Part shown: in pieces, positions 6,082 through 64,000 of the stretch
Layout of the letters: every line of letters begins with the position of its first letter
How positions within the stretch are numbered: the first letter of the stretch is position 1
Assembly (NCBI GenBank): GCA_019057795.1
Contig: JAHLWS010000078.1
Location: forward strand, 96,001 to 160,000
Length of the DNA stretch: 64,000 nucleotides
Source: Promethearchaeota archaeon
GTDB taxonomy: Archaea > Asgardarchaeota > Lokiarchaeia > Sigyniarchaeales > SOKP01
Direction of reading: 5' to 3'
Notes under the pieces: model-generated
The model's database searches: none
Told to the model about the DNA's origin: nothing
What the model saw: only the letters and a program-made list of their open reading frames with translations
Made by a program: the position numbers and the translations under genes

Positions 6082-6744
6082 TTATAGTATTCCTTTCCTA
6101 GTACCAACCAATAATTTTTTTTTATCAATCAAATCCTTAATTTTTTCATAATTTACGATTAACGCCTTCAATAAATCATAAGTATATCGAATTTTATTAA
6201 GATCTCCTAATTTTTCGATCATTTCTTCCAATTTATAAACACAATTCTCTAAAATTACTTGATTAGCAGATATAATAGATAAATATAAAGAACGAGCAAG
6301 AATTTTAGTAACGAAATTATAGTTTTCTTTTTCAAAGAAAAAATCTGTCATCTCTAAATATCCTTCTGCAGCTTTAGAAGCAATTTTAGGATTTTTTTCT
6401 TCTGATTCCTGCCAAACAATGTCAGCAAATTTAGCTTTCAATAATGAATTTCTTGTGTTTGAAAATTTTGTTGTAAAGTAATTTAAATCTTTTTCTTCAA
6501 AATCAAATTCTTTCCCAACTATTGGAATTAATTTGTAGTCATCATTCCTAATTTCTAAGGCATGAACCAATGCTTCTTTTTGAATCGATCTAAAAAGAAT
6601 ATATTTCTTGTTTTCTTCATATTTCCTCATTAAAAGATTACATAAGTTTAACCAATCCAGTTGATTAAAATGATTAAATTTACCCTCTTCAATCATAATT
6701 CTTATTTCATTTGGTTCTTTATTATTCAAATCTTCTAAGCTCAT
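6082..6744 (-). pseudogene. Probably truncated N-terminal part of a DUF4209-type protein
   Basis: LLKAKFADIVW motif; coding-like sequence continues past the stop (*NKDYIWKSRFHELERKIQKD*). Confidence 0.4.
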
Positions 6745-26163: not shown

Positions 26164-26324
26164 TAATCTAATTATTTTTTTTTATTTTATTTTTATCTTT
26201 TTGAGATTAAAATTTCTGTTTGTTTCGTAAAATTTTAAATTCTATAAAGATTTTCCTGAGAGTTTTTGTTTAAATAGAAATGATATTAATTTTTCTTTAT
26301 ATATAAGGACAAAAATATAATATC

Positions 26325-26996
26325 ATGACTGATACTAACTTTACTTTTTTATCCTTAGAAGATAGTATTTATGAAACTCCTTACTTGGATGATGATATAG
26401 ATGACGATATTCTTGAGTGGCATTCGATTGAAGGTGCTGAACGAATTAAGGAGCTTTCAAGACAATTACGAACATTTCTAAATTACAAGACATCAATGAT
26501 TTATTTAAGATTTTCAAGATCTCAGAATTGTGATCCCTTTCATAATAGAAATATGATTATAGAAAAGGAAAGAGAACTTAACATATTAACTTCACATCTT
26601 TTAGCTAATTTAAAAGAGATTGGTGTAGATGACGGAGATATTATTGGTGAGAAAATTCAAAGTCTATTTGATAAAATAAAGACCCTCCCAAATGAAATTG
26701 ATATAAACCGATTAAAAGATATAAAATCAATAAATAAAAAAATATGGGTGTTAATTCACATTTTATCTGAACTTGAGATTCATCATCACTCAAGGCTTTT
26801 TAATAGGATAACGAATATTGCCTGTATTTCTTGTGAAATTCAAAGCATATTGTTTCATCCTTTTTCAGAGTTCTATTATGAATTGAAAAGCAATTATCTT
26901 CTTTTAGTTAAGGAGATATCTGATTTACTAAGAATAAACAATAAGAACAAGGCTCCATCTATTAAAAATAAAAATAGGGAGAGAGTTCTTACATGA
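26325..26996 (+). CDS. Partner protein A of two-gene nuclease module (copy 1)
   Basis: W..IEGA..IKELSRQLRTF.NYKT shared with 58255-58869; ATGA overlap with next gene. Confidence 0.8.
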   Translation: MTDTNFTFLSLEDSIYETPYLDDDIDDDILEWHSIEGAERIKELSRQLRTFLNYKTSMIYLRFSRSQNCDPFHNRNMIIEKERELNILTSHLLANLKEIGVDDGDIIGEKIQSLFDKIKTLPNEIDINRLKDIKSINKKIWVLIHILSELEIHHHSRLFNRITNIACISCEIQSILFHPFSEFYYELKSNYLLLVKEISDLLRINNKNKAPSIKNKNRERVLT

Positions 26997-29821
26997 ATAC
27001 TAAAATTGAATCAGTAAATAGGGGAATGCTAAATGAGGAACGAATTGCAATTTGTTCCCATTTTGGATGTGGTACAATCAAAAAGGTTAAACCACTAAAA
27101 TTCGGTTCATTCGGATTTCGAAAATATCCTAAATGTTCAAAACACAAACTATCTTTAGTATTTGTCGATGAATTTGTAGAGCAATTTATTTGCTCTGTAA
27201 ATGCTTGTTTGTTTGATTTATCAAGCTTGCCACCTAAAGATTTGGTAAATTCTATTACTGAAGATGTTCCAGAAGAATTAGAATTATTTATCAATGTTTG
27301 GATGTATTGCAGTCCTATAGGACGAGGTGCTCAGATTATATCACGATATTTCGATGGACTTTCAAAGGGTTATATCAAATTACTCAGTCGTAAACAGAGA
27401 AAAGCAATTCAATGTGGAAAATCAAGCAAACGAAGTTACAATATGTTGCGTCAGGGATTAAAAAAAATTGCAGATGAATACACACTTTTCTTACAAGAGC
27501 TTCGTGTCGTATCGCACGATTATTGTGATCTAAATAAAGTACTTCCATTATCAAAAAAATCATGTGATATTATTAAAACCTGGCGAAAAAAACAATCAGT
27601 TAATAGAAGAAAGAAAAGTACTAAAGATGAAAATCTAAATGACATTTCATTATTAAAAAATGATTATGATGATATTCTACATTTAAGGACTTCTTCTTTT
27701 ATTATAGGAAAACCTCCTACAGAAAAAATATCTGCATTTGAGCTTTTTTCAGCTTATTTTGAATTTCTAAAGGAAGGTTTATGTAGCAAGCTAAAAAAAG
27801 AAAATATTCAACAAGTATTAAATATCCAAGAAACTAATACAGAGAACTCTTCATCTAAATCTCATTTAAGGCAAGAATTGTTAACCAATCTTTATGGTAT
27901 AATAGATTTAATAAACTTATATAATTCTGATCAAAAAGATGTAATGAAATCTAAATCTAAGGAAATACTAGAAGAATTCATATCCAGAATTGAACAAAAG
28001 GAATTTTATCTACCCAAAAATGCTAACTTAAGAGTTATTGCAAGTACGGTTGTATATACTACAGCTCTTTATGTTAAAAAATTGCCCATATTAACCACAA
28101 GAAAGATTGGAAACATTGCTGCTGCTACTCCCAGCAATATAAGTAGGTATTATAGAAGATATTTTGAGAAATTATATCCTCGAGAAAACTTTGAGATATA
28201 CGGATTTAAACGTATAAAATTAATTATTTCACTATATTTTTTTGAATTATTAAAGAATTCAAAGTTAAGAACATCCGAACTCATTTCAAACCTAGAAAAG
28301 GAGATATATAGTGAATTTTTTAAGGAAGAATTTGGAGAATATTTTACAAAAGACATTGAAATACTCCGTAATATGGTAACTCAATATCGAGATAAATTTA
28401 TTAAATACTTTTCTGATCTAGCTGAAATTGTTAAATTATTAGCAAATACAAGTAAAATTCATAAAGAAATTGGAGCAAAGGTATATCTCAAACCTATTAT
28501 CGACCTTTTAAATGAAGAAAACTTTAACTTGTTTCAAAAATCTCGTTTTGTTTTTTCCGTTAGAGAAATATATGATAGTTTAAGACATAAAAATCCGGAT
28601 CTTTTTCCTCCTCGAGCTTATCAAACAAAAGATAGAAATGTTACGAATAAACAGAGAACTAAAACCGATAAAGATTTGATAAGAATAATTGGAAGTAGAT
28701 TAAAAATATATGCCATAAAAAATATCTATAAAGGTAAGTATTTTAAAAACGGACAAGGAAAGTGTCAAGAATGTCAAGAAGAAAAAATGCTTATAAATAC
28801 CGACATTTCAAGATTGAATGCTCTAGAATTTCACCACACTTCTGAGAAAGAAAATCATTTTACTGCCAATAGACTTTATGAATTATTTACTAAAAATTTA
28901 CGTAATTTGAATTTGTTAGAATGGTTAATCGAGCTAATGGAAGCAGAAGAGGTGGTTCTTGTATGCAGAAATCACCATCGTATATTGGAAGAAAAGTACT
29001 ATGGATATTTTCATTATCTTATAAATTGGAAAAATTTATTCTGTTATCCACCAGAGGTAATACATGCACTCATTAGGATTTCAGTAGATACATTTTATAA
29101 AACAAAACGATTATCTGTAAACAAGAAAGCGGGTATTAGGGATGCAATTGCTAGATATATGAAAAAAAGGTATATTATAGAATTTTTTTATGGTGGTTCT
29201 TGTCATACTTGTGGAGAATTCCATACAAATAATCACTTACCAGCTTTCGTTTATCATCACAAAAATGAAGAGTCTAAAACGGTTAATATTAGTAAAGTAT
29301 ATCATCTTACTTGTTCTGAAATTATTCAAATCATTATAAAAGAGCAAGGTGGATATGTTTGTTCGAATTGTCATAGATTACTTCATTATAACAAATTTAT
29401 CCCCTTATTAGACGATATTTATAAAGATAAAAATATGATTAAAAGGATTATTAAAGACTATAATCGTATTCTCAGAGCATTTTCCCCCATTGAAAGTGTA
29501 GATATTAGAAAGAAGAGTCCTTTAATTAAACCTACTTTAGATACAGATAGCTTTATGAAGTTCTTAATAGCAATTTATGAGATTTCAAAGATGGGTAAAG
29601 AAGTCAATAATACTGAATTAAAAGAATATTTAAGCTATCACGATGTATCGTCCATAACAAGAATTTTTAGAAGAAAAGCTGATATTATTGGTAATTATAT
29701 CAGTATAATAAAAGGAGTTTCCAAATCTAGTCCTACTAAATACAAATTAAATGAAAAAGGAAAAAAAGTTATTTCCTTATTTCAAAAATTTAAGGATTTT
29801 TACGCTATTAGTTCAAATTAA
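26993..29821 (+). CDS. Module protein B (copy 1): conserved Cys/His N-terminal domain, TFIIB/cyclin-like helical region, two HNH-like domains, wHTH
   Basis: C..FGC...KPLK...PKC.KH; CQEC...LEFHH...CRNHH and CHTC...FVYHH...CSNCH; C-terminal KYKLNEKG. Confidence 0.75.
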   Translation: MNTKIESVNRGMLNEERIAICSHFGCGTIKKVKPLKFGSFGFRKYPKCSKHKLSLVFVDEFVEQFICSVNACLFDLSSLPPKDLVNSITEDVPEELELFINVWMYCSPIGRGAQIISRYFDGLSKGYIKLLSRKQRKAIQCGKSSKRSYNMLRQGLKKIADEYTLFLQELRVVSHDYCDLNKVLPLSKKSCDIIKTWRKKQSVNRRKKSTKDENLNDISLLKNDYDDILHLRTSSFIIGKPPTEKISAFELFSAYFEFLKEGLCSKLKKENIQQVLNIQETNTENSSSKSHLRQELLTNLYGIIDLINLYNSDQKDVMKSKSKEILEEFISRIEQKEFYLPKNANLRVIASTVVYTTALYVKKLPILTTRKIGNIAAATPSNISRYYRRYFEKLYPRENFEIYGFKRIKLIISLYFFELLKNSKLRTSELISNLEKEIYSEFFKEEFGEYFTKDIEILRNMVTQYRDKFIKYFSDLAEIVKLLANTSKIHKEIGAKVYLKPIIDLLNEENFNLFQKSRFVFSVREIYDSLRHKNPDLFPPRAYQTKDRNVTNKQRTKTDKDLIRIIGSRLKIYAIKNIYKGKYFKNGQGKCQECQEEKMLINTDISRLNALEFHHTSEKENHFTANRLYELFTKNLRNLNLLEWLIELMEAEEVVLVCRNHHRILEEKYYGYFHYLINWKNLFCYPPEVIHALIRISVDTFYKTKRLSVNKKAGIRDAIARYMKKRYIIEFFYGGSCHTCGEFHTNNHLPAFVYHHKNEESKTVNISKVYHLTCSEIIQIIIKEQGGYVCSNCHRLLHYNKFIPLLDDIYKDKNMIKRIIKDYNRILRAFSPIESVDIRKKSPLIKPTLDTDSFMKFLIAIYEISKMGKEVNNTELKEYLSYHDVSSITRIFRRKADIIGNYISIIKGVSKSSPTKYKLNEKGKKVISLFQKFKDFYAISSN

Positions 29822-29889
29822 AATAACATGTCAATTTATATTATTTTTTGAATTTATTAAATCAATTATATACTAAATATTTAAAAAAA

Positions 29890-31098
29890 ATGAAAGCTAT
29901 AGAATTAAGAGCAAAATGGGATCCTAAACCAGATTTCAAACTTGGTTTAAAGGATAATGATGGAAAGCTTACTTATCTCGGTTCTCAAGTTTGGAGAGGT
30001 CCACATATAAGTGTTGTGGATAAGGAAAAGCCAAAGATTCTTCCAAATGAAGTGCTTATCAGAGTAAAACGCTGTGGAATTCTTTAAAGATTTGTTTTAA
30101 AGAACACAATATGCGGCTCTGATGTTCATATGAATCAGGCTTACGATGATGGGTATATCTATTATCCTGGGCTAACAGCATTTCCAGTAACCCTCGGACA
30201 TGAATTTGCAGGAGAAATTGTTGAAGTAGGATCTCAAGCAATAAGTAAAAGGACTGGGAAACATTATGAAATAGGAGAGCCTGTAACCGTAGAAGAAATG
30301 GCATGGTGTGGTGAATGCAAACCTTGTTGTGATGGATATCCGAATCATTGCGAACGATTACAAGAAATTGGTTTTTCTATAGATGGAGCGTTTGCCGAGT
30401 ACATAACGGTTCCAGCAAAACTTTGTTGGAGTTTAAAGAAATTAGAAAGAAATTACGATGATGTTTTTAAAATTGGTAGCTTGGTTGAACCAACTTCAGT
30501 TGCTTTCAATGCAGTTATTGAGAGAGGTGGAGGCATTCGTCCAGGAGAAAATGTTATAATCTTGGGGGCTGGACCAATTGGATTAGTCTCTACTAAAATA
30601 TTGAAGACCGCAGGAGCGGGGTTATGCATTGTTTCAGAACCTGAAGAACATCGAGCGTCGTTAGCTAAACAAATGGGAGCCGACTATGTTATTAATCCTC
30701 TTAAAGAAAACTTTGTAGAAAAAGTAAAAGAATATACCGACAATGAAGGTGCAGCGCTATATCTTGAAGCTACAGGATTGCCACAAGTAGTAACTGATGA
30801 CATTCAAAATGCTATTTGGGAATGCAAGGCGGTTAATAGTACCGTCGTAATAGTTGCAAGAGCGGAACAAAGAATGCCAGTGTGTGGAGAGTTTTTTCAA
30901 GTCAAAAGGGCTAGAATTGTAGGAGCTCAAGGGCACTCAGGACACGGAACTTTTTTCAACGTAATTAGTTCGATGGCAGCTGGTATGGATGTTACTCCGA
31001 TGATTACAAAAGAAATTTCTCTTGAAGAAGTCCCAGAAAACATAAAACTTTTACAAACTGATAGAAAAAATTGCAAAATCTCCGCAATTATAAACTAA
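29890..31098 (+). CDS. iolM: scyllo-inosose 3-dehydrogenase, interrupted by a 30-nt insertion
   Basis: The 79-aa and 322-aa ORFs share a frame; AKWDPKPDFKLG...LTYLGSQVWR and YYPGLTAFPVTLGHEF match Thermotoga IolM; removing 30 nt restores VKRCGICGSDVH and a 392-aa protein. Confidence 0.88.
30080..30109 (+). other. 30-nt hairpin insertion with in-frame TAA; candidate BHB-type mRNA intron
   Basis: TTCTTTAAAG-ATTTG-TTTTAAAGAA stem; TGTG/CACA pairing; AAT direct repeat makes the boundaries slide by a few nt. Confidence 0.55.
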
Positions 31099-32011: not shown

Positions 32012-32065
32012 ATGGGAAAATGGAACCTTCCTCCATCTGGCGGACACAAATATATAAGAATTTAA
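32012..32065 (+). pseudogene. Orphan 5' end of iolN (MGKWNLPPSGGH)
   Basis: AGGTGA RBS, ATG at 32012; matches MTKWNLPP....GH of 33887-34867; similarity ends near 32048. Confidence 0.85.
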
Positions 32066-33726
32066 TTATTTATCCAATCTTTAAGTTTTTGTTCACATTC
32101 TCTTTTTAATTTAGGATTATACTTATTCTTCCTCCAATAACCCATTGGTGGTTTATCAATCCTAGATAATTTGCATAACTTATCAATATCCTTAGGTAAA
32201 ACTCCTAATATTTTGGCTATTCTATTTTGGGGGATCTCCCATATTATCTCTTCTATATTCTCTTTAGGAATATTGGCTAAATTTTCTCTATTCTGTTCTA
32301 ATATAGGAGATTTCTTAATAGCTATAGCAGCTATTCTTGCTCTTTTTATACTTTCCTCTAAAGGAGTAAGATAAATTCTTTTTCTTGGTAAAGAATCTTT
32401 ATAATTATCTAAAATTTTATTAAATAGTTGTACTCCTAAGAACAATCTATAAGCATTTACATTTTTATTATCTCTGGTTACTAGATTATCAATGTTAAAT
32501 TTTTCTTTAATTTGTTCAAGAAATTTTCGATTTCCCGATGTAATTTTTGAAGTTCCTTTAGTTCCATCACCATCAAAATAACCTAATAGGAAAGCTAGTT
32601 CTATTTCACGATTAGGAAGTATAGGGTATTCAATTTTAAGAGATTTGTTAGGAATACAACCATGACTATTTAAATCATCAAACATCCTTTTACTGCTAAT
32701 TCGTATACGCACATTATTGTCAATATATTCTTTCTTCTCTTTATTAGCTCCCGAAAAATCAACATACTTATCAATTAATATTTCATCTTTCAAATTTACT
32801 TTTAGAGTTACTTTTTTAGATTTAGTATCCTTTTTTATATAAATAGAGCCATCTGAATACATCACACCTAACCAATATCCTTTTTCTTTAGTATTTATTA
32901 ATTCAAAACAATTGTCAATTAAATTTGGATGTGCTACATTCTCTCTTAAAACTCGTCGCTTTTCTAACCCTAATTCCTTTTCTTTATCTAGAACATAGTG
33001 ATGATCAATCCATATACTTTTAATATTTTTAAATTTAGCTATATTACTAGCTGCTTTTGTAGTTAACATAAGCTGATCAATTATGTACATCTCAATAATT
33101 CTTTCCTTATTTATAATCTTAACACATTTTAATAATTCTTCCTTGTCTTTATCTAATAAATCTTGATTTGTTTTAATGAAATCAACAAATGCAGGTCTTA
33201 AAACAACTCCTTTATTTGCTTTTTGCTTTCTTTTTTCAAAATAATCATTAAAAAGAGATAATAGCTTTGGATGAAATAATGTATTTTCAAAATAATTTTT
33301 ATCTCTATCCTTCAAATATTTTAGTCTAATTCTATCCAACTGTTCTTTATATTCTATTCTGTTTTCATGAGGATTTTTATCAATTTCTAAACTGCAATCT
33401 GGAATAAAGGTTCTCTCATTATTTTCTTGCATTTCGAGGGAGGGAGTAAAACTTCGCTCTTCATTCTTGATATTGAAGTTTAACTTAGGTGTAAAAGTTA
33501 TATTCACAAAATCTTCAGATATTTCAGCAGAAGGATTGAAGCTAGTAGTTTCTTGTTTAAGATCTGGAGTAAAAAATCTTTCTTTATCCAATTTTGGTAT
33601 TTTTAAAGATGGAAAGAATATATTGTCTTCTTTAGATTTACCTTTGTAAATATCTGAATTATTCTCTTTAGATTTAACCTCTTTCCAACTCTTTCTGTTC
33701 TTATATTCATTACCATATTTGGACAT
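32062..33726 (-). CDS. Free-standing LAGLIDADG endonuclease with six F-x-P repeats in its leader
   Basis: YWLGVMYSDG and FLLGYFDGDG; FFP/FTP/FNP/FTP/FTP/FIP then RI...KDRDKNY; C-terminal HTH-like KPPMGYW. Confidence 0.88.
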   Translation of the reverse strand: MSKYGNEYKNRKSWKEVKSKENNSDIYKGKSKEDNIFFPSLKIPKLDKERFFTPDLKQETTSFNPSAEISEDFVNITFTPKLNFNIKNEERSFTPSLEMQENNERTFIPDCSLEIDKNPHENRIEYKEQLDRIRLKYLKDRDKNYFENTLFHPKLLSLFNDYFEKRKQKANKGVVLRPAFVDFIKTNQDLLDKDKEELLKCVKIINKERIIEMYIIDQLMLTTKAASNIAKFKNIKSIWIDHHYVLDKEKELGLEKRRVLRENVAHPNLIDNCFELINTKEKGYWLGVMYSDGSIYIKKDTKSKKVTLKVNLKDEILIDKYVDFSGANKEKKEYIDNNVRIRISSKRMFDDLNSHGCIPNKSLKIEYPILPNREIELAFLLGYFDGDGTKGTSKITSGNRKFLEQIKEKFNIDNLVTRDNKNVNAYRLFLGVQLFNKILDNYKDSLPRKRIYLTPLEESIKRARIAAIAIKKSPILEQNRENLANIPKENIEEIIWEIPQNRIAKILGVLPKDIDKLCKLSRIDKPPMGYWRKNKYNPKLKRECEQKLKDWINN

Positions 33727-57525: not shown

Positions 57526-58128
57526 ATGAAGTCAATGGATTCGAAAGACGCAGAAAACGAAACGGAAAAATTAACAAAAGTACTTTCTATTGTTCAAAAT
57601 CTTTACTATAAGAAGAAGGAACAATTAGACGATTTAAAATTAGAAATCTCTGAATTACACATCGTTTTAGATTATTTAAACTCATTGATTTCAAAGCAAT
57701 CGTTTTCAAGTGCAGATGAAATTTATTCGAAGCTTTTAAATCGTGAAGAGAAAACGATTGATGATTATTTTAAAAAAGATATTTCACAGGAAGATTTTAA
57801 TGGAACTAACATTAAAAGAAAAATTTTCTCGAGCAAAAATCAGAATGAAGAAGATTTATTATGTGTGCTTAACCTCTACGACTTTAAAAGAGTTGAGATA
57901 AAATTTATTGATCCTGAAAAAAGGGAGATACAAGAAACTTCAGAGAATTTTATTAACATTTTTCTCAAGGGGGCACTTATTAAAATAAAAGAAAATAACC
58001 CTAATTTGAGCATTAATTACAATTTTTTCAAAAATTCCGATAAAGTTGAATATATTCACATATCTAATTTAAGTTCAATTGAAGACTATGATTTGATAAC
58101 GGACAAAATCCGCGAATTATTATATTAA
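57526..58128 (+). CDS. Hypothetical protein; host gene of the module insertion
   Basis: 200 aa; its 3' end recurs in diverged form at about 61325-61417. Confidence 0.75.
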   Translation: MKSMDSKDAENETEKLTKVLSIVQNLYYKKKEQLDDLKLEISELHIVLDYLNSLISKQSFSSADEIYSKLLNREEKTIDDYFKKDISQEDFNGTNIKRKIFSSKNQNEEDLLCVLNLYDFKRVEIKFIDPEKREIQETSENFINIFLKGALIKIKENNPNLSINYNFFKNSDKVEYIHISNLSSIEDYDLITDKIRELLY

Positions 58129-58171
58129 GATATTATATTGATTAATTAAAATACAAAGAATTAATTATACA
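58127..58171. repeat. Direct repeat, left copy
   Basis: AAGATATTATATTGATTAATTAAAATACAAAGAATTAATTATACA; recurs at 61469-61510 and 61520-61554. Confidence 0.9.
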
Positions 58172-58254
58172 AATTTTCATCATTGAATCTTTTTTTTTTG
58201 TTCTTTATAAATAACTGTGATAATTGTCTAGTAAATAATTTAAAACAATAAATT

Positions 58255-58869
58255 ATGACGGACAATATTGAAGAACATTATATTGAATCAGAATATGAAG
58301 AAATTTTTAATGATTGGTATGAAATTGAGGGCGCAAGAAAAATAAAAGAACTTTCACGCCAACTCCGAACTTTTTTCAATTACAAGACAGAATTAATAAG
58401 ATATCGATTTCGATCCAGTCCAAATCTTGCCGAAAATTATACAAATAATAAATTTTTTGCTCAAAAACAAAAGATTGAATCATTATCTGATGAATTTATA
58501 ACCCTTTTAAAAAAAATTAAGAAACATAGACAATCCCTTGAACAAGTAATTCGTTCTCTATTTTTTAATAATAATAAAACAGTATTAAACAAACTTTCAG
58601 AAATCACAGAGAAGTTGTCCATTCTACTCCACTATTTCTCAGAGGAATGCATTCATGATCATCCAAGATTCCTCAAATTCATCGTTGTATTAGCACAAAA
58701 CATTTGTTTGGTGAAAATGTGCTTGTATGCTGAATTCAGCGAATTTTATGGGGAACTTGAAGTTAACTACAATGGTTTAAATGGAGAAATGGAGATAATA
58801 TTAGAAGAAACGCTAGGAGATAAAATTAAAAAAACAAAAAATCAACTTGAGGAGAGATTGAGGATATGA
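58255..58869 (+). CDS. Partner protein A of two-gene nuclease module (copy 2)
   Basis: Homologous to 26325-26996; ATGA overlap. Confidence 0.8.
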   Translation: MTDNIEEHYIESEYEEIFNDWYEIEGARKIKELSRQLRTFFNYKTELIRYRFRSSPNLAENYTNNKFFAQKQKIESLSDEFITLLKKIKKHRQSLEQVIRSLFFNNNKTVLNKLSEITEKLSILLHYFSEECIHDHPRFLKFIVVLAQNICLVKMCLYAEFSEFYGELEVNYNGLNGEMEIILEETLGDKIKKTKNQLEERLRI

Positions 58870-61283
58870 AGGCATACACAAATGTATCACGGAAAACAGT
58901 GGAAGAGGATCGAGTAGCAGTCTGCCCAAATTTTGGGTGTGAGTTTATGACACGAGTTAAACCACTTAAGTTAAAGTTCTTAGGTTTTAGTAAGCATCCT
59001 AAATGCAAGAAACATCACATCCCTTTAGTTTACATAGATGAAAGGATCGGGGATTTCGTGGATGCTGCATTAGTATGCTTGTTTGATAAAGCAGGACTCC
59101 CACCACGTGAATTACTCGAGGGAGTAAAATCAAAATTCCCCAATGAAATTACCTCGTTTATAGAAGGATGGGTGTATAGCATCACGGTTGGAAGGGGAGC
59201 TCCCATTGTATCACGTTACATGGATGCCGTTTCGAATGCATATCTCAAGCAATTAACCAAAAAACAGATAAAATCATTGAAAAAAGGAAATAATTCAAAA
59301 CCAAATCTCGTGAAAAAAGCAATTAAGGATGGTCTGGATGAAATTGCACTTCAATATACAAGACTACTTAAGCATCTTAGAGCCCATTCCGAGATCCTCA
59401 TTGATCATCAAAGACTTAAATCACTTTCAAGAAGTCTCCAAAATTATTTGAATGATTGGCATAAGGATATTTTAAAGTATAATGAAATCATAATTTTCTC
59501 AGAAAATAAGCAAGAAATGACTTTAAAAGATATCAAGTGCAAATATGATCAAATTCTTAATGTTGGCACCTGTCGATGCCTTCTTGGATTAAATCCAGAA
59601 AGTAAAAAAATTAAGAAAACAAAATTAACTGCGTTTGATCGGTTTTCCGCTTATATAGAATTTTTTTCTGAAAGTATTACTGAAAAATTTACTAAGTCCG
59701 ATATTAAAGGACTTAACTCAGATATTAATCCAATTAAAAAGTCAATAAAAAAAATGAAATCGTACGATAATTTTGAAAGTGGTAATAGTCAAAAGATTAA
59801 GGAATATTTAAAAAATCTTGATTGGGAGAATTTAACTAACAATTGGACATTATTACATAGAGAACATCATACACATCCTTACAAGGAAATTCTGCTTGAT
59901 CCTCATAAAGATCCTTCCAATGAAAATCCTTTATGGAAACACGAAATTTGGTTGAAGCGAGTTTATGCTGATGAAAATTATAATTTTTCAGATAGTCTTA
60001 TTTCTCGAATCACTGGTATTGCTCGCGACACAGTCAGAAAATACCGTAGGAAATTTAATATTAGCAATGGCTACTACAACACGACTCAAAAACCAAAACT
60101 TAGTAAAGAATTGATTGAGAAAAGGGAGAAAATTCGCAATTTTAATTGGAACATTAATATTGATTGGATGATACCCGTCGGGATTCATGGAGATTTGTCA
60201 ATTCTTAACCCAAACAAATATTGTAGTTTTGATAATCCTTTATACAAGCATAAGCTATGGTTAAAAAGAGTCTACGAAGATGAAGAGCTTGATTTGAATG
60301 GAGTTGAGATTGCCAAAATATGCAGTCTTAAAGATCAGAAACCTATTAGTTATTGGAGAAAAAGATTAGGGATACCTAAAAAAAGAAAAGGTATTTTTCT
60401 AAATAAGTCAGGACATAAGTTGGTTCTCACTCCAAATTCCTATATACACCCTCAGCGTGGTAGACTCTATCAACGTGCTGAACATACACTAATCATGGAA
60501 AGATATTTAAATAAAAATCTATCAAGACGCCAATTAGCAACACATCCGGATTTGATTCAGGGATGGTTAGGAGAAGAGGAGTATTTTTATATAAAAAAAG
60601 ATTGTCATGTTCACCATATCAATTTTGTAGGTTTAGATAATAGAATCGAGAATCTTTGGTTATTTTCAAGTAATCGCGCACATGGATTAGTGGTTAATGA
60701 GCTACATCAATGCCTTTCAATTTTGATTAAGTTACATCAAATATTTTTTAAAGAGGGCATGTATTTTCTAAATGAAGATTTTGATTGTCTTCAGTTAGAA
60801 AGAGATGATATTCGGAGTAAGTTAAATCTTAATATTGTAATAAACCACTCTCTCTCTCGATTTTATGATAAGCGAAGAAATTCTTTTAGTGTAGCGATGT
60901 CTGCCTCCTATAACAATCCCTTTATTTCTCCAAAAAAAGGAATTGATTATGTTTATATGTATGAACATAGATATATCATCGAGCAATATTTTAGGACGCT
61001 TTTAAGAAAAGAGACTATATTACTAGAGGAGCACATTGATTATCAAAAAGCTCAAGAATTCATAAATCCACAAGGGTTTTTAAAACCCGATGCTATCGTG
61101 CACCATGTAAATTTCGATTCTCGAGATAATCGGTTATTAAATTTATATGTGTGTGAAATTTCTGAACATAGGCTTGTTCATGGATTAATTTACCAATTAG
61201 TCGAAAGATTACTTGATATGGGATTGATATATTTCAGTAATGGGAAATATTTTTTGGATAACACTTTGACTAATAAAATGTGA
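58866..61283 (+). CDS. Module protein B (copy 2): conserved N-terminal domain, two NPL..H..W/HTH repeats, two HNH endonuclease domains
   Basis: First ~280 aa align with 26993-29821; HHINF..LDNRIENL and HHVNF..RDNRLLNL. Confidence 0.85.
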   Translation: MKAYTNVSRKTVEEDRVAVCPNFGCEFMTRVKPLKLKFLGFSKHPKCKKHHIPLVYIDERIGDFVDAALVCLFDKAGLPPRELLEGVKSKFPNEITSFIEGWVYSITVGRGAPIVSRYMDAVSNAYLKQLTKKQIKSLKKGNNSKPNLVKKAIKDGLDEIALQYTRLLKHLRAHSEILIDHQRLKSLSRSLQNYLNDWHKDILKYNEIIIFSENKQEMTLKDIKCKYDQILNVGTCRCLLGLNPESKKIKKTKLTAFDRFSAYIEFFSESITEKFTKSDIKGLNSDINPIKKSIKKMKSYDNFESGNSQKIKEYLKNLDWENLTNNWTLLHREHHTHPYKEILLDPHKDPSNENPLWKHEIWLKRVYADENYNFSDSLISRITGIARDTVRKYRRKFNISNGYYNTTQKPKLSKELIEKREKIRNFNWNINIDWMIPVGIHGDLSILNPNKYCSFDNPLYKHKLWLKRVYEDEELDLNGVEIAKICSLKDQKPISYWRKRLGIPKKRKGIFLNKSGHKLVLTPNSYIHPQRGRLYQRAEHTLIMERYLNKNLSRRQLATHPDLIQGWLGEEEYFYIKKDCHVHHINFVGLDNRIENLWLFSSNRAHGLVVNELHQCLSILIKLHQIFFKEGMYFLNEDFDCLQLERDDIRSKLNLNIVINHSLSRFYDKRRNSFSVAMSASYNNPFISPKKGIDYVYMYEHRYIIEQYFRTLLRKETILLEEHIDYQKAQEFINPQGFLKPDAIVHHVNFDSRDNRLLNLYVCEISEHRLVHGLIYQLVERLLDMGLIYFSNGKYFLDNTLTNKM

Positions 61284-61324: not shown

Positions 61325-61417
61325 ATCGAATACAATACTATTTCTAATTTAAGCGCTATCGAAGATTACGATTTAATAACCGCATAAATACGAGAATTAT
61401 TAACTCGTGAGATGTAA
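61325..61417 (+). pseudogene. Displaced 3' end of the 200-aa gene
   Basis: IEYNTISNLSAIEDYDLITA*IRELLTREM* versus VEYIHISNLSSIEDYDLITDKIRELLY*. Confidence 0.88.
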
Positions 61418-61468
61418 TCCATCTATAAAATGCGGATTAGATAAAGTTTGAATAGTATGTATTATATA

Positions 61469-61554
61469 AAGATATTATATTGATTCATTAAAATACAAAG
61501 AATTAATTATTTAAATTTAATTGATTAATTAAAATACAAAGAATTAATTATACA
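61469..61554. repeat. Direct repeat, two right copies
   Basis: Near-exact matches to 58127-58171. Confidence 0.9.
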
Positions 61555-61598
61555 GAGTTTTATATTATTTTTAATTAAAAATTTGGAGCGTATGAACA

Positions 61599-63170: not shown

Positions 63171-64000
63171 TTACTCTTCATAATTTAAATAATATTTACC
63201 CTTCTTGAAAGAGAGTAAACCAGATTGTATTAGCGGGCTAACGGTGTCTAATAAGCTCGCATGTACAGAATTGTGCCCCTTATGTTCTTCACAAACCCAT
63301 AAGTTTTTTAATCGATTATCTAGGGTAACAAGGTTGATATGATGAACTTTATATTCTGATTTTAAGAATTTTCCATCAAGAAGGCTATTTTGAGAGATCC
63401 CCAATTCAAGATGTTTCGCTAAATAGTTTTCTATTACATAGCGATGTTCAAGCATTATATTTTGTCTACTGAGCTTTATTGCGAATGGGTTTTTGTAATC
63501 ATTTGGTATTTTTCTCCATATACGATCACCAGCGCTCTCGCTTCTCTTAATGGTGCGAATATTTCCCCATCGTTCATAATAAGTTGGAATTTTATGATGA
63601 TTCCATCTCCATTTATATGCTGTGGACTCTGAAATGCCGCATACTTTCGCGAGCCGTGGATCTGTCAAGTTATATTGTTTTTCTCTGACGATGGTTTCCA
63701 TCCAAAACTTATTTCTATAAAGTGGATTTTCTTTTGAGCAGTCCTTGTAGGGATCAACTGTCATACTAACTTGTCCATATTGATTAGAATTTTTCCACAC
63801 ATTCCAATCGTTAGGGACATGATCCCAATCGAGTGTTTTTATTTGGTGTTTTATTTCTTTTATACTCATATCACCTTTAAATTCAGCAGGCTTAATTATT
63901 TCCTTAATTTCTGAGAGATCTAGCGTTTTATAATCGAATTTGTAGTTTACATTGTATTTTCCCTCATTAAATTGGATTTGACTAAGTTTATATAAGCAAC
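63171..64000 (-). pseudogene. C-terminal part of a frameshifted HNH-repeat protein related to 58866-61283, running off the window
   Basis: LDWD...DPYKD..KENPLY...HHINL..LDNRLKNL; upstream in another frame LYKLSQIQFNEGKY matches IKLHQIFFKEGMY; frameshift near 63925. Confidence 0.75.

Follow-up and report, generated by a model that had tools for sequence, protein, structure and literature searches.

What decides the insertion site of a two-gene unit whose second gene keeps its beginning and changes its end? The question is raised by a 64,000-nucleotide stretch (hereafter the window) of a lokiarchaeial genome (Promethearchaeota archaeon, assembly GCA_019057795.1, contig JAHLWS010000078.1, positions 96,001 to 160,000 of the forward strand), which holds two copies of a cassette made of a small gene, A, and a long overlapping gene, B. 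Here we report that A and B form a two-gene accessory unit inserting at defined intergenic sites, and that the type of the C-terminal part (tail) of B predicts the site. Judging from sequence comparison, A+B is probably a selfish homing cassette, in which a constant heterodimeric core is combined with a swappable site-specific nuclease.

Results

The genome searched was the window's own assembly (G000; 4.95 Mb, 87 contigs, about 29% G+C). Its A+B pairs are numbered as cassettes, cassettes 1 and 2 being the copies in the window:

26325-26996, + strand: A1, helical partner protein of 223 amino acids
26993-29821, + strand: B1, 942 amino acids
58255-58869, + strand: A2, partner protein of 204 amino acids
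58866-61283, + strand: B2, 805 amino acids
26241..29886, + strand: cassette 1 as an insertion of about 3.6 kb, between a GPH/MFS symporter gene and iolM

Insertion sites were compared among 45 cassettes with flanks, taken from 12 genomes and 4 metagenome contigs, and flank sharing was counted over the 703 pairs that had flanks on both sides. When the C-termini were at least 60% identical, 11 of 12 pairs shared at least one flanking gene and 7 shared both; without C-terminal homology, 4 of 649 pairs shared a flanking gene and none shared both. Resemblance of the constant N-terminal domain of B (N-domain) had no such effect, none of the 110 pairs with N-domains at least 70% identical and no C-terminal homology sharing any flank. 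The cassette P0031 occupies the same MFS/iolM site as B1, with flank proteins 76% and 84% identical, and resembles cassette 1 more closely in the C-terminal part (62-82%) than in the N-domain (about 52%) or in A (44%). P0007 has an N-domain 79% identical to that of B1, carries another tail, and adjoins a tRNA-intron endonuclease gene. At site 2, the flanks of G000 and of a second genome, G044, are 93-97% identical in nucleotides, and identity is 88% in the tail, 80% in A and 69% in the N-domain; the site-2 N-domain of G000 is nearer to the site-3 N-domain (80%) than to the site-2 counterpart in G044 (62%).

Exchange of tails was assessed on an N-domain tree of 131 full-length members carrying 22 C-terminal clusters. 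The clusters require at least 48 changes on this tree, compared with a minimum possible of 21 and with 70-77 for shuffled labels, so the tails have been exchanged many times, and not at random. A first reading of the window, made from its letters alone (hereafter the sequence-only reading), had proposed that the unit is retargeted through exchange of its nuclease part. The sequence comparisons favour this proposal: the C-terminal type predicts the site, the N-domain does not, and the trees of N-domain and C-terminus disagree. The nuclease type appears to go with the site, as if the gene sat where its own enzyme recognises the DNA.

The same reading had given open reading frames and an ATGA overlap for both window pairs, and its coordinates proved exact. 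Both pairs are real, but the genome total is six, not the two that it counted; every one of the six found by the search of the assembly has the 4-nucleotide ATGA overlap, and their B proteins range from 720 to 1122 amino acids. The A proteins of the two window copies are 34% identical (E 2e-30). B1 and B2 share an N-terminus and differ in their C-termini, as it had described, with 35% identity confined to the first ~285 residues and nothing significant beyond. The B motifs that it quoted are likewise real, GRGA..SRY and AF..FSAY being nearly invariant among 53 members and the zinc site being present in both B1 and B2, and copy 1 does lie within an inositol cluster (its flanks are the GPH/MFS symporter gene and IolM-, IolO- and IolN-type genes). 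Both window copies are intergenic, each with its own TATA-like box, and lie within neither an intron nor an intein; the gene 3' of B is iolM at cassette 1 and a conserved host gene of 271 amino acids at cassette 2. A third cassette gene upstream of A was considered and ruled out, since the genes found there at cassettes 2 and 3 (200 and 196 amino acids, respectively) are unrelated.

The constant part of the cassettes comprises the following features in the window:

26269..26276, + strand: TATA-like box TTTAAATA, 56 nucleotides before the A1 start; left edge of the conserved block
26993..27850, + strand: constant N-domain of B1, residues 1 to ~286, with zinc site C21/C26/C48/H51 and nine helices
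58204..58211, + strand: TATA-like box TTTATAAA, 51 nucleotides before the A2 start
58866..59720, + strand: constant N-domain of B2, with the zinc site at residues 20-50

In all six copies of G000, a TTTAAATATA-like box precedes A by 50-70 nucleotides, and these boxes are presumably promoters. Cassettes 2, 3 and 4 are 70-90% identical in nucleotides from about 60-100 nucleotides upstream of A to B residue ~278, past which identity drops at a sharp edge to alignment noise; BLAST matches from many genomes end at the same junction, near residue ~278. Promoter, A and B residues 1 to ~280 are thus a constant block of 1.5 kb that is exchanged between cassettes. A overlaps B from upstream in 41 of the 45 cassettes with flanks, in agreement with the linkage in other genomes that had been expected. 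Both genes are under purifying selection, with ratios of nonsynonymous to synonymous substitution (dN/dS) of 0.26-0.36 for A and 0.16-0.18 for the N-domain.

The zinc site has the pattern C-x4-C-x21-C-x2-H (residues 21-51 in B1, 20-50 in B2), and the alignment of B residues 1-290 from 53 family members contains the invariant polar residues C72, D75, Y119, Q135 and K222. The AlphaFold model of the N-domain (predicted local distance difference test, pLDDT, 89; predicted template modelling score, pTM, 0.85) has three short strands round the zinc site, followed by nine helices. A1 is modelled entirely as helices (pLDDT 79) behind an acidic disordered N-terminal tail with a net charge of -11 in 35 residues. 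A and the N-domain are predicted to form a complex with an interface score (ipSAE) of 0.80-0.81 in three runs, against 0.00 for the best control; the mark used for this score was attained by 58 of 80 solved complexes and by 2 of 110 mismatched pairs. The runs share at least 75% of their contacts, the partner pLDDT is at least 72, and the predicted interface, formed by A residues 37-66 and 179-200 and B residues 105-128 and 152-185, coincides with the most conserved stretches of both proteins. A is therefore predicted to bind the N-domain as a heterodimer. That A is the partner of the constant domain, as the sequence-only reading had supposed, is suggested by this model with its clean controls, by the co-variation of the two proteins (A identity tracks N-domain identity with r = 0.89 over 809 pairs) and by the ATGA coupling.

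Neither A nor the N-domain had a match in Pfam, PHROGs or PADLOC, and Foldseek found no match in the Protein Data Bank (PDB) to either model at E <= 0.001. VIA-align gave a best Z score of 6.1 for the N-domain against 48,161 chains (helical hairpins only) and of 9.5 for A (generic helix-bundle matches), both within noise for helical proteins; the ESM Atlas structure search with the N-domain stayed below a template modelling score (TM) of 0.3, and a language-model and feature search with both proteins gave no usable match. No export domain was detected, the N-domain being without a Pfam, PHROG, NCBIfam-type or fold match. An exhaustive profile search of 1.84 billion representatives with the N-domain recovered only 105 clusters; wherever the start was intact, the domain stood at the very N-terminus of the protein.

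The variable C-terminal parts of B, given as coordinates for the window copies and as module types for cassettes 3 to 6, are as follows:

27851..28762, + strand: B1 middle region, the presumed DNA-recognition part, without a Pfam match
28763..29374, + strand: B1 double Zn-HNH module, residues 591-662 and 737-794
29375..29821, + strand: B1 C-terminal tail, with weak, sub-threshold Pfam matches only
59721..61283, + strand: B2 variable part, repeated helix-turn-helix (HTH)-like units and two HNH_3 nuclease units
60612-60707 and 61101-61181, + strand: the B2 HNH_3 units, residues 583-614 and 746-772
B3: HNH module (PHROG 4.6e-4)
B4: treble-clef-like zinc ribbons
B5: LAGLIDADG module (Pfam LAGLIDADG_3 6e-9; PHROG endonuclease 9e-25)
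B6: GIY-YIG module with many HTH units (Pfam 27.6 bits, cut-off 22.6, scanned alone)

The Zn-HNH units of B1 match PHROG HNH endonuclease families at 1.5e-12 and 1.6e-11. Their zinc and catalytic pattern C..C/HH/N/C..CH, that of HNH (beta-beta-alpha-metal) nucleases, occurs twice and is invariant in 35 homologues (columns H40, H41, C84, H88, C163, C166, H182, C216, N218, C219 and H220 of alignment A5). Of the tail predicted for B1 by the sequence-only reading, the Zn-HNH pair is upheld by these matches; the winged helix-turn-helix met only the sub-threshold Pfam matches listed. Its HNH repeats in B2 correspond to the two HNH_3 units (Pfam 3e-9; PHROG HNH 3e-13). The middle region of B1 is 46-80% conserved in the same-site cassette of the metagenome contig L027; an early idea that this region is TFIIB-cyclin-like found no support.

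Elsewhere in the family there are more LAGLIDADG and GIY-YIG types, tails that match 'homing endonuclease' families of PHROG, and DUF4379 zinc fingers for which PHROG gave endonuclease matches. The sole match in PADLOC 2.0 was the 'homing endonuclease' model on B5. These family assignments, made by sequence, are in line with the earlier suggestion that the C-termini have nuclease folds. A phmmer search of the C-termini against PDB sequences was uninformative, and an HNH profile searched against the PDB gave only a weak match to the McrA tail (E 0.14). In the metagenomic member P0190, a C-terminal RNase_T/DEDD exonuclease domain (Pfam 6e-11) replaces the homing-endonuclease module.

Homologues of several B tails also occur in G000 as solo genes, without A or N-domain. 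One of them, a solo endonuclease gene of the same pool, encodes 554 amino acids within the iol cluster (window 32062-33726, - strand) and matches the B5 LAGLIDADG tail with 36% identity over 216 residues. Another, of 797 amino acids (window 63171-64000, - strand, continuing to C78:161564), is 37% identical over 252 residues to the B2 tail, and combines HTH-like and HNH_3 units with an acidic low-complexity N-terminus that replaces the constant domain. Solo homologues of the B3 tail (C69:3-3326; 48% over 817 residues, acidic N-terminus) and of the B1 tail (C46:55322-56977; 37% over 552 residues) were found on other contigs.

The N-domain is present in 13 of 24 species of the window's genus in the GTDB, with 0-9 copies per genome; several genomes of the genus that are 98-100% complete have no copy, and some copies elsewhere contain stops or deletions. 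In a phylum-wide sample of 251 genomes, matches were found in 8 of 54 genomes of the window's family (f1) and in none of 196 from other families; a separate search gave one weak match in a second family. No relative of the N-domain was found among the IMG/VR viral contigs.

Exact empty sites were found in close relatives for both window copies. Contig C72 of G009 joins window position 26240 to 29887 with 46 nucleotides between, and in G056 (C205, 93-95% nucleotide identity) ~26184 is joined to ~29769 with 10 nucleotides between; the borders of cassette 1 are approximate because the DNA is AT-rich. At site 2 of G020, the flanking genes of 200 and 271 amino acids, whose proteins are 93-95% identical to those beside cassette 2, lie 156-170 nucleotides apart, compared with ~3.5 kb in the occupied genomes G000 and G044, and many other species are likewise empty there. 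Site 2 is also occupied in G056 and G042, whose contigs break off within the cassette. Occupancy varies independently from site to site: G056 has no cassette at site 1 but one at site 2, and G020, empty at site 2, has a decayed copy at site 3. This copy (G020:C160:10328-16877), the counterpart of cassette 3, has a deletion of ~190 nucleotides and a stop in its N-domain, and so is decaying; for cassette 3 itself no empty site could be delimited, the gene order downstream not being conserved. Empty sites at both window copies, a copy number varying from 0 to 9 within one genus and decayed copies all agree with the mobile two-gene unit first proposed.

Some cassettes lie between duplicated ends of neighbouring genes. 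Cassettes 2, 3 and 4 have direct, diverged repeats of the 3' end of a neighbouring gene (59-147 nucleotides, 75-93% identity), and the iolM-site cassette of L027, from another lokiarchaeon, lies between two copies of iolM exon 1 (195 nucleotides, 77%). The L027 copies are at 2094-2321 and 6321-6539; in G000 the left copy is missing. At cassette 2, the copies are:

58048..58190, + strand: left flank copy, native-type 3' end of the 200-amino-acid host gene with the conserved intergenic box
61328..61560, + strand: right flank copy, stranded foreign-type 3' end of the 200-amino-acid gene with two intergenic boxes

The left copy is 99-100% identical to the sole copy at the empty site of G020. The stranded right copy is closer to the type of another species (G012; 83-87% identity) than to the native type (75-77%), and the stranded copies of G000, G044, G056 and G042 are 92-100% alike. 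The stranded copy has kept its protein sequence with many synonymous changes, and contains an internal TAA stop in G000 and G044; ~35 nucleotides beyond the stranded stop codon, identity switches from foreign-like to native-like. Two origins fit the native and foreign copies: co-conversion accompanying homing, or integration of a circular cassette, bearing a piece of the target, through one crossover. The repeats vary in length and are diverged, and are not fixed-length target-site duplications; the cassettes have neither terminal inverted repeats nor a common right end, their ends being conserved only at the promoter block. A 74-nucleotide deletion in the left flank copy beside cassette 2 in G000 (58115-58128) makes the 200-amino-acid protein end in ..ELLY* instead of ..ELLACEK*; G044, also occupied at site 2, retains the longer end (L017 of G020 and L018 of G044 were compared).

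Discussion

A homing endonuclease gene normally comes alone and has a nuclease of a single family. A+B is best placed among the free-standing homing endonuclease genes, set apart by a constant, predicted heterodimeric core that is common to several nuclease classes. The cassette, ~3.3-3.7 kb long, would be restricted to a single lokiarchaeial family. The C-terminal two thirds of B would act as a site-specific homing endonuclease, with DNA-recognition units and a nuclease of the double Zn-HNH, double HNH_3, LAGLIDADG, GIY-YIG or another type, and would set the location of the cassette. This tail may cut the cassette-free allele, and recombination and repair by the host would then copy the cassette in, sometimes together with a stretch of the donor's neighbouring gene, which would leave diverged duplicated gene ends. 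A and the N-domain would be co-translated and, by prediction, form a heterodimer; recombination of the core block between cassettes at the sharp junction would join the same core to different nucleases. The core may regulate or assist the cutting or copying step. We would guess that it is a clamp which regulates or licenses the nuclease, with the acidic tail of A possibly acting as a DNA mimic; alternatively, the core could be a helper steering repair or integration. A is not a classical active-site immunity protein, because it matches the constant domain and not five nuclease folds; if A is an inhibitor, it works through the N-domain.

Several points weigh against the homing cassette. Because the genomes share ancestry, the pairs counted cannot be treated as independent trials. 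G000 is a metagenome-assembled genome with an estimated contamination of 7.5%; the contigs with cassettes also carry host genes. For the C-terminus of B4, no nuclease family was matched in Pfam, PHROG or PDB sequence searches. Flank repeats (59-195 nucleotides, 71-93% identity) occur at only 6 of 41 cassettes, at four sites, and are not general. The solo nuclease genes imply that the core is dispensable for the persistence of a nuclease gene. Since these genes do not require the core, a further, less likely reading stays open: the promoter-A-N-domain block might itself be a selfish mobility adapter, a heterodimer of two novel folds that captures resident homing endonucleases through recombination at a fixed junction and adds a function not known from any other homing element, perhaps steering repair to copying or integrating a circular cassette with a piece of the target. 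If this were true, the cassettes would be a new class of archaeal mobile element and not decorated endonuclease genes.

Some of the same features would suit a novel transposon or integrative element, with the A+N-domain core as recombinase and the C-terminal module merely tethering it to the target. The core is conserved, always present and of a novel fold with invariant polar residues; the insertions are discrete, some with flanking direct repeats, and the native and foreign flank copies would be accounted for if a circle had integrated by one crossover. Such an element is unlikely, however, considering that terminal inverted repeats and a conserved right end were not found, that the flank repeats (59-195 nucleotides, diverged and usually absent) are unlike target-site duplications or att sites, and that the nuclease catalytic motifs are invariant, which a mere tether would not need. 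Avs, Lamassu and CBASS are defence systems that pair a conserved module with exchangeable effector domains, and the two-gene operon studied here shares with them a constant module, swappable nucleases and a patchy accessory distribution; it differs from them in that A and the N-domain are without a PADLOC match and that the effector type is tied to the insertion site. An anti-virus system in which A and the N-domain sense infection and the nuclease is the effector is very unlikely: the nuclease type tracks chromosomal position, for which a defence effector has no reason. The modules moreover belong to classes of homing endonuclease and have long parts for DNA recognition, duplicated gene ends of foreign type flank some cassettes, and a single defence system would not usually have six to nine paralogues in one genome.

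Equally improbable are domesticated site-specific DNA-binding regulators on dead homing-endonuclease scaffolds, with A as co-regulator. The many HTH-like units, the purifying selection on both genes and the fact that every cassette adjoins a particular host gene would accord with them, yet the catalytic residues are conserved, presence at each site differs between close relatives, decayed copies exist, and there are complete genomes of the genus without the family. We give least credence of all to the idea that B is a polymorphic toxin deployed between competing cells and A its immunity protein or chaperone. The likeness is considerable and includes a constant head, a recombining C-terminal nuclease, a sharp junction, a genomic pool of tails and a small adjacent gene. 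However, an immunity gene would adjoin the toxin domain and vary with it, but A is encoded upstream of B and varies with the constant domain (r = 0.89), not with the nuclease; the genes downstream of B are host genes, and the tails are site-specific homing enzymes that track position. LAGLIDADG and I-TevI-like GIY-YIG modules are such homing enzymes and are not known to serve as toxin domains of polymorphic toxin systems.

The closest comparison for the homing cassette is provided by the mobile endonuclease open reading frames (mORFs) of fungal mitochondria (Allomyces atp6; Glomus atp6, atp9, cox2 and nad3), which are free-standing and have duplicated gene C-termini; a native and a diverged foreign copy of the gene terminus flank the endonuclease gene, indicating horizontal arrival (PMC3630166). 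Like mORFs, the cassettes lie outside introns and inteins, at a gene end, are present or absent between close relatives and, at cassette 2, stand between native and diverged foreign gene ends; here, the host gene bears the native type and the stranded copy is foreign, the reverse of the fungal layout (PMC3630166). Unlike mORFs, the cassettes consist of two genes, with a constant N-domain of 280 residues and a partner, and reside in an Asgard archaeal chromosome. The intron-less Seg and Mob homing endonucleases of T4-type phages are free-standing GIY-YIG or HNH genes between host genes, which combine modular nuclease and DNA-binding parts and spread through cleavage of alleles that lack them. 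Each is a single gene, and there is neither a partner protein nor a constant domain common to nuclease classes. The mobile elements described from Asgard archaea (aloposons and Atabeyarchaeia elements) differ from the A+B cassettes; aloposons were considered and are unrelated (PMC8813620). Full-text literature searches found no description of the A+B family.

The cassettes matter because one conserved two-protein core has been joined in turn to several homing-endonuclease classes, with the nuclease part predicting the chromosomal address, and they offer a natural series of retargeted nucleases on a common scaffold. They would also be a clear case in which active gene-level parasites shape Asgard archaeal chromosomes by importing foreign gene ends into metabolic operons, and they present two orphan protein domains with a predicted specific interface.

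Other observations

The IolM-type dehydrogenase gene 3' of B1 (window 29848-31098) is split into a first part of 72-79 amino acids and a second part of 322 amino acids. The split comprises ~30-40 nucleotides (gap ~30088-30129) with the inverted repeat CTTTAAA..TTTAAAG and falls at the CGICGSD zinc motif; it is likewise present in L027. An intergenic box of ~35 nucleotides, ATTGATTAATTAAAATACAAAGAATTAATTAT, occurs at window positions 58137, 61479 and 61520, that is, once to the left and twice to the right of cassette 2. Conservation reaches 92-97% even in distant members of the genus, and the box may serve the 271-amino-acid gene as a terminator or a promoter element.

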